Assembly: GCA_964525635.1 (NCBI GenBank)
Contig: CAZGJX010000012.1
Span: forward strand, 1 to 51,307
Direction of reading: 5' to 3'
Length of the DNA: 51,307 nucleotides
Source of the DNA: an uncultured archaeon
GTDB lineage: Archaea; Asgardarchaeota; Lokiarchaeia; Sigyniarchaeales; SOKP01
The notes beneath the pieces are model-generated. The model was not told the origin of the DNA. It made no database searches and was given only the letters and a program-made list of their open reading frames with translations. Each line of letters opens with the position of its first letter. Within the stretch, counting starts at the first letter, position 1. This document shows, in pieces, positions 9,772-51,080 of the stretch. The position numbers and the translations under genes are program-made.

Positions 9772-10104
9772 TTATTTTTATATCCTTTAAGAGGTGCTTA
9801 TTATCGTTGTGCTATTAAACAATTAGTTAGAGTATTGTTATATAAATTTTATTATCATATTATTGTGATTTCAATAAATATAAAAAAAAAAGCAATAATT
9901 GAAATAATGATTCTCTCTCGACCAATATTGTTCAATTTATTTCTTTTTTTAATTAAATTATTTATTCTTCTGCTGATATATCTAATATTTACAATTTTTT
10001 CAATATTAATTTTTGAAAAATTAATTTGAACTAAAAAAAAATGTTTATATGTTAAAAAAAAATTATACTTATTTATTTAAATATGAATTAGAAAGGTGTA
10101 AGAA

Positions 10105-47892: not shown

Positions 47893-48372
47893 TTGAGAAA
47901 GCGAAATTCAAAGAGGAGAATCAAAAAGTGTTATTTCCACCCTAAAAAAAGGAGAAAATCTCTATGTAAGTTTTGTGGAAAACCAATCTGTAAAAAATGT
48001 GAGAAAATTGGTTTAAAATCTTATAAAAATAAAAAAGATAGCTTTTGTCCGTTATGTTATTATGAAGAAGAAATAAATAAATGGGAATCTAAAAAACCAG
48101 TTAAATTTAAGATATCTTTTATTAAATGGTTTTTCAAGATGAATTTATTAATAGATGAATTTTTTGTTACTTTTATACTCATATTGCTTTTTACAGAATA
48201 TAATGAATATTATTATTTTTATAATATCTTAGTCTTCCTGATTTGGATATTTACATACTTAATATTGTATTATTTTGGAAAAGATGGATATAGATTAACA
48301 TATTTATATTATCTCAAAAAGAAAAAAGAATTGCTTGATAAGAGAGTTGAGAAAAATTTTAGGATATTTTGA
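47893..48372 (+). CDS. B-box-like zinc finger membrane protein
   Basis: CYFHP...CKFCGKPICKKC...CPLC followed by two TM segments. Confidence 0.75.
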   Translation: MRKRNSKRRIKKCYFHPKKRRKSLCKFCGKPICKKCEKIGLKSYKNKKDSFCPLCYYEEEINKWESKKPVKFKISFIKWFFKMNLLIDEFFVTFILILLFTEYNEYYYFYNILVFLIWIFTYLILYYFGKDGYRLTYLYYLKKKKELLDKRVEKNFRIF

Positions 48373-48496
48373 TGATTTATATAAGATTTCCAACATTGGA
48401 CTGGTACAACATAGTTATATGGTAAGTCTGAGGATACCATCCATCAATATCTTATTAAAATGAAATAGTCTTTATTTCCATAAATTTATTAAGCGT

Positions 48497-48620
48497 AAGA
48501 AAAAAAGAGAAGAAGAAATTAAAGTTCGGATTACGAATGAAAAGGGGAGATTCTATTAAATGATTTCATCATTTAAGAGAAGGCGAAATCCAATTTTATA
48601 TTCCAAACATCAACTCCTTC
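48497..48620 (-). ncRNA. Putative structured small RNA, copy 1
   Basis: TTTATATG box at 48643-48650; terminal stem pairing 21 of 23 positions; 9-bp apical hairpin; pyrimidine tail; homologous to copy 2. Confidence 0.65.
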
Positions 48621-48797
48621 CTTTGATATTAATCTTAGTTCGCATATAAATATGCTTGTATTATATATAAAAATACAGAATTATTAATTTATCCTAGTCC
48701 AATCTTTATTTCTTCTAAAAAAAAGAAAAATAGTATTCTAATAAGATTAAATCTTGAATCTTTTTTCTTTTACTTAATTATATTTAAGAAAATTTAT

Positions 48798-48920
48798 AAG
48801 AAAGAAAGAGGAGAAAGAGCTAAAATTCGAATATAATGAAAAGGGAGAGAAAAATTAAACTTTTTTTAGTTTAATAGAGGGCGAAATCCAATGTTAAATT
48901 TCGAATTTTTTTACTCATTC
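48798..48920 (-). ncRNA. Putative structured small RNA, copy 2
   Basis: TTTATATG box at 48942-48949; terminal stem and apical hairpin with compensatory changes; conserved bubble sequences. Confidence 0.65.
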
Positions 48921-49046
48921 TAATAATATAGTCAGAATTAACATATAAATATTCATCTATTATGGATTATACAGAATGGATAAATTCATTATCTTAAAGT
49001 TTTATTATTTTTTTAATAAATCTTAGATGACAAAAGCCATTAGATT

Positions 49047-51080
49047 TTAATTATCTTTTTTACCATCGATTATTTCAGTAGTAAACTTAGCCTGGCATTG
49101 TTCCAAGTCATTTATTGCATTAGAATAAATTTCTTTTAAGCCATAATTATTTGATTCTTTAATAACTTCATTAAATAAATTAATTGTTTCTTCTGTATAT
49201 TGTTCATTATCCAGTTTTAATTTCGCAAAATTATATAATTTCTTTATTTCCTTTTTTTTCTCTATTTTTATATTTTCTCTACAGAAATCTATATTTCTTA
49301 AAGCATCGTTATATAGATCTAAAAGGTCATTTTTTTTTGATTCCTGAGCTATTAATTCAAGCAGTTCAATTGTGTTTTTGGTATAAAGCTTATTTTTAAT
49401 CTTCTTTAGAGCTTTAATATATAGTTTTATTATTTCTTTTTTTTTATAAGGTATAGATTCTCTTTTTTTTTCACTTTTAACCTTATTATTTTTTAAATAA
49501 AGCCGATATGAGCCATATAATGAAATAAGAATAATTATTGGGGTTACAACTGCTATTGTGATTATAAATGGCATCTGATTTGGATTATTTAAAGAGTTTG
49601 TTGGATCGGTATGGTATATAAAAAGTTCTTCATAATCAGAAAATCCATCTCCATCTGTATCGGCTTTATTTGGATCTGTTCCATATATATTTTCTGTATA
49701 TTTAGATAACATATCAAAATCAGCATCAATATTTTTTTGATTCTTCATTCTATTAAAAGTTGTATCTCCTGAAAAACCTTGCCAATAAATTCTTTTACCT
49801 GATTGTACAGGATTTAGACAAATTATTTTTGATGTTACTATTATAACTTCAAGTTTTCCATCACCATCCAGATCCCCTAAAGAAGGAGGAGAATTTACAT
49901 TATCTGCAGTTGTATAATTCCAAGCTAATGTACCATCTTCTCCATTTAAGACATGTAAAACATCATCAATTCCTGATATAATTTCGAGCTTTCCATCTCC
50001 ATCTAAATCCCCTAATGCAGGTGAAGATCCTACAATCCCACTTGAGTTATAAATCCAAGCTAGACTTTTATCCTCACAATTAATAGCATATAAATTTTCA
50101 TTCGAATATGAAAAAGTTGTTTTTAACCCTCCCACAATTAATTCAAATTTTCTATCTCCATCTATATCACCAATAATTGGTATACTTGGTATGATATCCA
50201 GATAAGGATAATAATCTAAATCTCCATCGTCCCCATTAATTATAACTATGCATCCCAAAGGTGGGTTCTCTGGAATTCCACCAATTAGCACCGATCCTCC
50301 AACGGCTATATCCAACTTTCTATCAGCATCTATATCTACTATAATAGGAGAAGATGTCAAAAATATAATATCTAGGTTATAATTCCAAGCTAATGAACCA
50401 TCCTCTCCATTTAAAACATGTAAAACATTATCAACTCCTATTATAATTTCGAGCTTTCCATCATTATCTATATCCCCTAAAGCAGGAGAATAAGTTACAG
50501 CATCACCTGTTGTATAATTCCAATTAAGTGTTCCATCCTCACCATTAATAGCATATATATTACAATCATTACTTCCTACGACAACTTCTAGCTTTCCATC
50601 ATTATCTATATCCCCTAAAGCAGGAGAAGAAGTTACAACATCACCTGTTGTATAATTCCAATTAAGTGTTCCATCCTCACCATTAATAGCATATATATTA
50701 CAATCATTACTTCCTACGACAACTTCTAGCTTTCCATCATTATCTATATCCCCTAAAGCAGGAGAAGAAGTTACAACATCACCTGTTGTATAATTCCAAT
50801 TAAGTGTTCCATCTTCGCCGTTAATAGCATATATATTACAATCATTACTTCCTACTATCACTTCTAGCTTTCCATCATTATCTATATCACCTAAAGCAGG
50901 AGAAGATTTAGTATTTTCTCCTAAATCAAACTCCCATAATAAATTTACGTTCTGAGAATTGTGTAATTTATTTATTTCATATACATTCTTATAATTATAT
51001 TGATTATAATAAGTGAAATTAAAAATAATAATAAAAAATATAAATAATCCAATTTTGAGCATTTTGATTGCATATTTCAT
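49047..51080 (-). CDS. FG-GAP repeat beta-propeller surface protein with TSP3-like Ca repeats, TM anchor and cytosolic helical repeats
   Basis: SSPALGDIDNDGKLE-type repeats, about seven; DTDGDGFSD; TM IITIAVVTPIIILISL. Confidence 0.88.
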   Translation of the reverse strand: MKYAIKMLKIGLFIFFIIIFNFTYYNQYNYKNVYEINKLHNSQNVNLLWEFDLGENTKSSPALGDIDNDGKLEVIVGSNDCNIYAINGEDGTLNWNYTTGDVVTSSPALGDIDNDGKLEVVVGSNDCNIYAINGEDGTLNWNYTTGDVVTSSPALGDIDNDGKLEVVVGSNDCNIYAINGEDGTLNWNYTTGDAVTYSPALGDIDNDGKLEIIIGVDNVLHVLNGEDGSLAWNYNLDIIFLTSSPIIVDIDADRKLDIAVGGSVLIGGIPENPPLGCIVIINGDDGDLDYYPYLDIIPSIPIIGDIDGDRKFELIVGGLKTTFSYSNENLYAINCEDKSLAWIYNSSGIVGSSPALGDLDGDGKLEIISGIDDVLHVLNGEDGTLAWNYTTADNVNSPPSLGDLDGDGKLEVIIVTSKIICLNPVQSGKRIYWQGFSGDTTFNRMKNQKNIDADFDMLSKYTENIYGTDPNKADTDGDGFSDYEELFIYHTDPTNSLNNPNQMPFIITIAVVTPIIILISLYGSYRLYLKNNKVKSEKKRESIPYKKKEIIKLYIKALKKIKNKLYTKNTIELLELIAQESKKNDLLDLYNDALRNIDFCRENIKIEKKKEIKKLYNFAKLKLDNEQYTEETINLFNEVIKESNNYGLKEIYSNAINDLEQCQAKFTTEIIDGKKDN
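50451..50908. repeat. Near-identical 138-bp intragenic tandem repeat (~3.3 copies)
   Basis: AGCAGGAGAA recurs at 50481, 50619, 50757 and 50895. Confidence 0.9.

Follow-up and report, generated by a model that had tools for sequence, protein, structure and literature searches.

The small RNAs known to bind rRNA in archaea guide modifications, and RNA chaperones of ribosome assembly are, to our knowledge, regarded as eukaryotic. Among other small RNAs, RsaE/RoxS and Methanosarcina sRNA41 are sibling sRNAs of the anti-Shine-Dalgarno (anti-SD) type with an exposed C/U-rich strand, their own promoter and several copies, while bacterial 6S RNA sometimes has several paralogues. The non-modifying snR30/U17 uses an internal loop to pair with two separated motifs of SSU rRNA and chaperones platform helices h20, h22 and h23; it is built of two H/ACA hairpins, binds Cbf5-Nop10-Nhp2-Gar1 and pairs with the eukaryote-specific ES6 via opposite loop strands (PMC12095548). 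The acetylation guides snR4 and snR45 are bipartite box C/D RNAs which pair on both sides of a looped-out rRNA segment, with a loop of 9-11 nt containing the target C and two guides that lie far apart (PMC5464676). Bulge-helix-bulge (BHB) introns are defined by a 4-bp helix flanked by 3-nt bulges (PMC4090602), and the hosts given for them are tRNA, rRNA and cbf5 mRNA (PMC4090602, PMC2738675).

The window analysed here is a stretch of 51,307 nucleotides, contig C12 of a 4.45-Mb genome (26.8% GC) of an uncultured archaeon of the Lokiarchaeia. Between a B-box-like membrane protein gene (47893-48372, plus strand) and an FG-GAP propeller gene (49047-51080, minus strand), the region is covered by two direct repeats spaced 298-301 nt apart, in agreement with the duplication of about 299 bp described in an earlier reading made without database searches (the sequence-only reading), and no ORF of at least 40 amino acids was found within 48463-49047, where that reading had reported no conserved ORF. 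The FG-GAP/PQQ beta-propeller encoded at 49047-51080 is membrane-anchored and contains a TSP3 repeat as well as three repeats that are nearly identical. Further details of the same reading were recovered: identical upstream boxes stand 22 and 21 nt before starts at approximately 48620 and 48920, the arms of copy 1 (48620-48598 and 48534-48512) pair at 21 of 23 positions, five of them G-U, and each copy ends in a pyrimidine tract at its 3' end (Table 1). The proposal that the repeats are two minus-strand paralogous genes for an undescribed structured ncRNA was borne out by the finding of homologues and covariation and by the lack of an Rfam match; on this comparative evidence they were confirmed as genes of an uncatalogued family of rod-shaped RNAs of approximately 116-120 nt in Lokiarchaeia, whose transcription is predicted. 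Copy 1 is a genus-specific paralogue, the same subtype being present in G001-G003, in which the last 4 nt of the 17-nt motif pair into the apical stem; both window copies are intron-free.

Table 1. Features of the two RNA gene copies, with positions counted from the first letter of the window
Feature	Position	Strand	Basis
Copy 1 TATA box, TTTATATG	48643..48650	-	sequence; family-wide TATA-like peak in 129 copies
Copy 1 RNA gene	48497..48621	-	model R1 match 48505-48625, 88.2 bits; fold -31.1 kcal/mol, z -3.75
Copy 1 closing stem, 5' arm	48598..48621	-	fold; helices 1-2 covary in family
Copy 1 near-invariant 17-nt loop strand, one C-to-U change	48578..48594	-	family motif
Copy 1 apical hairpin	48551..48577	-	fold; helix 3 paired 97% in family
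Copy 1 3' loop strand, pyrimidine-rich, variable in family	48535..48550	-	aligned copies
Copy 1 closing stem, 3' arm	48511..48534	-	fold
Copy 1 U/C tract, probable terminator and 3' tail	48497..48510	-	family pyrimidine tract, 119 copies
Copy 2 TATA box, TTTATATG	48942..48949	-	sequence; family-wide TATA-like peak
Copy 2 RNA gene, typical family member	48795..48920	-	model R1 match 48806-48925, 100.8 bits; fold z -2.76
Copy 2 near-invariant 17-nt loop strand, identical to family consensus	48876..48892	-	motif search, family genomes
Copy 2 apical hairpin	48854..48875	-	fold; family covariation
Copy 2 CUCUCCC element, 3' loop strand	48843..48849	-	exact in 23/80 copies
Copy 2 U/C tract, probable terminator	48795..48812	-	sequence; family pyrimidine tract

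In an alignment of 60 copies, which was fitted to the structure, 87.8% of cells were paired and two-sided changes were observed at 27 of the 27 modelled pairs, with neither shuffles nor slid registers coming close; independent folding of single copies yields the same rod (median length 116 nt). These compensatory changes uphold the selection on helices that had been proposed, and describe a covarying rod in which a single-stranded element is held open. TATA-like motifs peak at -33..-28 with a second AT-rich patch at -11..-9 (129 copies), no comparable promoter peak was found on the opposite strand, and positions +2..+9 past the rod are approximately 85-95% pyrimidine (119 copies). Within the helices G-U appositions were commoner than A-C (122 vs 46). 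The minus strands of copies 1 and 2 were more stable than shuffles (z -3.75 and -2.76), while folding of their plus strands was not better than that of shuffles (z -0.42 and -1.42); across the family, minimum free energy alone was uninformative for strand (81/130). The minus (motif) strand was assigned because promoter, terminator, G-U bias and the handedness of the BHB introns described below all designate it.

Comparison with known RNA classes was made by several routes. Screening against Rfam 15 gave no matches in the window, the best E values (4.6-5.7) belonging to unrelated families and lying outside the rods, and ARAGORN reported nothing on the window. Identity with SRP or RNase P RNA was rejected, ordinary copies of both being encoded elsewhere in the source genome, and literature searches found no description of the RNA family. 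No C/C' or D/D' columns typical of box C/D sRNAs were conserved in 63 aligned copies. With regard to H/ACA RNAs, no 3' ACA box was seen, the 3' flank being the pyrimidine tract and the conserved ANA lying 5' of the motif, in the wrong place; on inspection there was no K-turn or K-loop, the apical stem being simply an AU-rich helix topped by a variable loop. As to the pairing of pocket strands with rRNA, complementarity to the 16S central domain was seen, but in the non-modifying order and without covariation. Resemblances to glycine and lysine riboswitches, SECIS, T-box, dif and ORB were dropped on inspection, and a riboswitch or cis-regulatory leader would not be found, as this RNA is, in both orientations beside the same gene and before unrelated downstream genes, with a terminator of its own. 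Y RNAs share with the Loki RNA paired 5' and 3' ends, a pyrimidine-rich loop, a U-rich tail and several paralogues; unlike in Y RNAs, the sequence of the terminal stem is not conserved here. There was no Ro-binding terminal helix with a bulged C, the helix covarying freely except for its purine-rich GAAG start, and the suggested likeness to Y RNA with a Ro60 partner was not supported, since TROVE/Ro60 was detected in none of 42 family genomes (0/42) in which controls were detected.

The distribution of the family was surveyed with covariance models and with the 17-nt motif (AUUGGAUUUCGCCCUCU, hereafter the 17-mer), which recurs in two further intergenic rods of the source genome (C11 and C24). 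A covariance-model scan found 1-8 copies per genome in 122 of 130 genomes, all of one Lokiarchaeia family, and the 17-mer with at most one mismatch was present in 71 of 90 family genomes, compared to 0-1 per genome for the reversed control. With a broader covariance model 23 of 24 family genomes were positive and 0 of the 125 other Asgard genomes sampled. Outside the family, model R2 gave its best match in G103 (E 6e-6), where it overlaps ORFs, all others having E > 0.006; the model also missed the copy in the sister lineage CR-4, so that distant homologues may exceed its reach. That lineage has one clear copy, found by pattern, which is GC-rich with extra hairpins and has a 3-nt linker in place of the apical hairpin, leaving the two pyrimidine elements adjacent. 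Named records with the motif were mostly MAGs of Promethearchaeota (Lokiarchaeia). A tandem pair approximately 300 nt apart was also found in G002, G003, G017 and G054, with neighbours differing from those of the window in the three of these genomes that were checked. Neighbouring genes vary freely among family loci and no partner gene co-travels, but across genera one ancestral locus lies, in either orientation, 3' of an MBL-fold hydrolase gene (17 neighbour records); outside the family, synteny around the MBL-fold gene showed no gap able to hold the RNA. The variable neighbours and the occurrence in either orientation beside the MBL-fold gene argue for a free-standing transcript rather than a leader. 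A short paralogue class of approximately 95 nt (L121, L123, L126, L127, L128, L059 and L063) has no regular apical stem and no 3' C/U element, and co-occurs with the long class in genus g11.

Several records fall outside this pattern. Typical copies are carried by L218, L225, L237 and L262, which are titled Hermodarchaeota, Odinarchaeota or Hodarchaeota and are probably mislabelled Lokiarchaeia, because no other Asgard family gave model matches. In a 61-kb contig filed under a Patescibacteria MAG (L211:5985-6055, 30% GC), an intergenic rod surrounded by small ORFs, six of which were tested without a Pfam match, contains the 20-nt motif unchanged; the contig may come from a Loki virus or plasmid that carries a copy and was misbinned, and about one such 20-nt match is expected by chance in the collection. 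Viral contigs gave four exact motif matches, none recognisable as a rod. In the Helarchaeales, L369 (G111:C72:12156-12284) is a rod of several hairpins lying between genes, its 5' arm rich in purines and its tail in U, and is possibly a different small RNA.

Of the two bubble strands described as best conserved, only the 5' strand is so among 60-135 homologues: it is near-invariant, whereas the 3' strand is a variable pyrimidine tract, absent in the short paralogues. Across 80 copies no variation was seen at motif positions 2-10, 12 and 15 and almost none at 11, 13 and 14, the last two positions being looser; these copies were partly selected by the motif, but the core is unchanged in members that were found through structure alone. 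An A(C)A or ANA is conserved upstream (5') of the motif. The alternative pairing of UUGGAU with the 3' arm, offered as a conformational switch, is possible in both window copies and in 48 of 135 family copies, compared to 30 +/- 5 by chance, so that by sequence the switch is not general across the family. The tracts CCCUCU and UCUCCC which flank the apical hairpin are mirror images with a 2-nt offset, and this mirror pyrimidine tract is lost or altered in many copies.

The strongest evidence for an RNA gene family was provided by relatives in which the 17-mer is interrupted. Seven genome loci, which first surfaced as weak model matches without an intact motif, contain hairpin inserts of 30-41 nt with a perfect 4-bp helix between exon and insert ends and 3-nt bulges on the 3' side (7/7); at both insertion sites, removal of the insert by cuts behind the second bulge base brings back the exact 17-mer within a normal rod. 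A metagenome scan, whose pattern left the insert sequence unspecified but built in the restoration of the 17-mer, added 30 homologous loci (22 by a fixed downstream-hairpin rule, 8 by inspection), in which the helix pairs 4/4 in 28 and 3/4 in two, including CCAG wobble variants, compared to about 2 of 89 unrelated pattern matches. In total, 37 homologous loci have the 17-mer interrupted by an insert of 29-45 nt, either after motif base 7 or after base 10, and the central BHB helix is perfect in 35. The inserts fit the published BHB definition (PMC4090602). Their geometry is feasible only on the motif strand, and each of five genomes (G000, G090, G049, G035 and G042) has two genes for the splicing endonuclease EndA (PF01974). 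In their short hairpin introns, relaxed HBh' form and encoded EndA these loci resemble archaeal BHB introns at large; they differ in the host, which here is a stand-alone small RNA, and a limited literature search found no small-RNA host of BHB introns. We infer strongly from these comparisons that in some lineages the 17-mer is rebuilt only once a BHB intron has been taken out by the tRNA splicing endonuclease and a ligase. In G090, G028 and G080 the only intact long-type copy detected is intron-bearing, which suggests that the spliced product is the working RNA. Because the introns interrupt the motif, family members escape searches by sequence. Splicing of the functional strand in the manner of tRNAs has good comparative support; whatever the target, BHB introns in a regulatory or guide RNA would widen the substrates of the archaeal endonuclease beyond tRNA, rRNA and cbf5 mRNA, and could render the RNA splice-activated.

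The introns also bear on whether the repeats are a non-autonomous mobile element or a DNA-level repeat, a reading in keeping with the variable copy number and with near-identical copies at contig ends of G013, but made very improbable by compensatory changes and G-U bias (122 vs 46 A-C), by introns with RNA-level geometry, by a promoter and terminator of the RNA's own and by the one locus that stays 3' of the MBL-fold hydrolase gene across genera in both orientations. The sequence-only reading had also raised MITE or IS ends; the ends of the copies diverge with compensation and syntenic orthologues occur across genera, while no target-site duplication was seen and no transposase was noticed among the neighbours, which were inspected by sequence clustering only. 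At the G013 contig ends (L055-L058), two near-identical copies and duplicated upstream genes break the assembly in what looks like a segmental duplication.

Some tRNA introns of G000 (e.g. ARAGORN records 146-6 and 174-1) have AAAUCG-type loops like those of several small-RNA introns, a likeness seen without formal alignment which suggests transfer of introns between tRNAs and the small RNA. The same genome has a dense array of 22 tRNAs in two opposed blocks with an almost full set (ARAGORN record 54, 22 genes; record 146, 6 genes), which could be a tRNA-array mobile element or contamination, and a tRNA-Sec (record 50, 9907-9999) consistent with selenocysteine use in Lokiarchaeia.

The best explanation found for the 17-mer, to which we give a probability of roughly 0.4, is that it acts as a base-pairing splint for the central (platform) domain of 16S rRNA. 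Its 3' 7 nt would pair with AGAGGGC at the start of what we take to be helix 22, and its 5' 10 nt with GAAAUC(C/U)(U/A)(A/G)U on the 3' side of the helix-23 loop (helix numbers presumed from the E. coli map), looping out the 33 nt of 16S between these segments, so that one 17-mer would have a predicted target region of 50 nt; the 3' loop strand could hold the next 16S segment, GGGAGAG. Such a splint might keep h22 and h23 unfolded during 30S assembly, as a chaperone like snR30/U17 without H/ACA boxes, or might inactivate subunits. The predicted target lies in the same platform subdomain as that of snR30/U17; unlike snR30, the Loki RNA has no 3' ACA box and would pair with h22 and h23 themselves through one contiguous strand. 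With snR4/snR45 it shares predicted bipartite pairing around looped-out rRNA, but it has no C/D boxes and its loop would be 33 nt. Of the analogies considered, the tentative one with bipartite guides is the best lead.

The split match to 16S was 17/17 Watson-Crick in G036, 16/17 in G010 and 15 plus one G-U in G045, with an identical 33-nt loop in all three; these are relatives, the source genome's own 16S being absent from its assembly. Shuffled guides scored at least 16 in 16S and 23S together in 2.6% of 25,470 trials, and with the 3' strand added 10 of 10,631 shuffles scored as well (P ~0.001), none with adjacent placement; the model was chosen after seeing the data, and these P values of 0.001-0.03 are post hoc. 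The longest pure Watson-Crick match to either rRNA was 9 nt, at the h22 site. Position 11 is G in 78 of 80 copies and position 15 is U in 80 of 80, in a genome of 27% GC, and their retention despite this AT-richness points to a literal C and A in the partner, as found at h22; changes at positions 13-14 are C-to-U, which wobble tolerates. The adjacency of the two pyrimidine elements in CR-4 also counts in favour of the splint. No contiguous literal complement of the motif was found elsewhere in the source genome.

Guides predicted for the 16S of the MK-D1 family and the Helarchaeales gave no convincing rod-shaped homologue and so no guide-target covariation: matches to the split-model guides were coding or unstructured, three intergenic near-matches (G098, G100 and G094) were mutually unlike, and most matches of a covarying contiguous guide for the MK-D1 family fell on the 16S genes themselves. 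The 16S of relatives offered at h23 a contiguous pairing of 12 bp with two G-U (P 0.03-0.18), which was set aside, as was pairing with SRP RNA, RNase P RNA or 23S, which was not above chance. The CUCUCCC of copy 2 complements the 16S segment just after the first predicted target, and is not specific under wobble scoring; in the family at large the 3' strand ranked 6/28 among permutations against GGGAGAGG and so is not specific. Its absence in the short paralogues was counted against the splint. The splint also leaves unexplained the conserved A(C)A upstream of the motif, the invariant third U, opposite a U in most family 16S, and the position-4 G, opposite a U in several genera; nor would an essential assembly factor usually be multicopy and so restricted in its occurrence.

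Those invariant positions left over by 16S pairing are among the reasons to consider a protein-binding or template element, that is, a titrating decoy, 6S-like for RNA polymerase or mimicking the 16S tail for a ribosomal or initiation protein, with copies setting the dose. The 1-8 diverged paralogues per genome suit stoichiometric titration, the motif loosely resembles the 16S tail GGAUCACCUCCU, and the rod with its large central bubble is shared with bacterial 6S RNA. The Loki RNA, however, is shorter than 6S RNA, has an invariant bubble strand and gave no match to the Rfam 6S models; archaeal RNA polymerase has no sigma factor, unlike that of the 6S context, and no 6S system is known to us from archaea. 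A run of 15 near-invariant single-stranded bases would be long for a protein site, no partner gene co-travels among the freely changing neighbours and the TROVE/Ro60 search was negative. We regard a decoy as rather unlikely.

The two positions which favour a literal partner at h22 count in addition against masking of translation starts by a sibling sRNA family, with CAU on AUG and CCCUC on the Shine-Dalgarno of many leadered mRNAs, since SD sites, like contiguous h23, present U and G opposite positions 11 and 15, and a true anti-SD would have A at position 11, which AT-biased mutation favours, in place of the conserved G. RsaE/RoxS and sRNA41 carry repeated short CCUCC/UCCC seeds, whereas the Loki RNA has one long invariant strand departing from the anti-SD. 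Placing CAU on AUG does bring CCCUC to -14..-10, within the GAGG peak of the source genome (-16..-11), twelve genes scored at least 10/15 compared to 3.7 for shuffles (P 0.023), and 29 start regions bind below -15 kcal/mol compared to 13.5; but the top anchored score was 11.5/15 and the best mRNA site (-19.3 kcal/mol) was no better than shuffles. Start masking was judged unlikely. Somewhat less probable again is a partner absent from the assemblies (pre-rRNA spacer, viral RNA or another ncRNA), or an ENE-like triple-helix clamp on a purine tract: rRNA operons are often missing from these assemblies and the near-mirror CCCUCU and UCUCCC tracts with their 2-nt offset would suit a triplex, but all pattern matches examined were gene copies or chance coding matches, many copies have changed or lost the mirror tract and a triplex would not explain the invariant 5' half.

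The comparative evidence is that of a real, undescribed and strongly conserved Lokiarchaeal small-RNA family. The fuller proposal built on the 16S splint, that a stand-alone, non-modifying Loki RNA without C/D or H/ACA boxes pairs with 16S h22/h23 to steer or block 30S assembly, as a prokaryotic counterpart in function of the processing snoRNAs snR30/U17 and U3 that is activated by splicing in some lineages, is more doubtful than the splint itself. If true, an Asgard RNA on the platform subdomain of snR30 would bear on the origin of nucleolar RNA chaperoning, although so narrow a distribution speaks for an invention of this lineage and against an ancestor. Two minor observations were made on the rRNA genes. 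A 16S in a Loki MAG (L040, G005:C106) looks bacterial and is a probable binning contaminant. The first bases of 23S in L189 and L191 contain a 7-nt complement of the 5' part of the motif (5 nt in G000), at chance level; in eukaryotes the analogous 23S-type 5' end is bound by U8 snoRNA.
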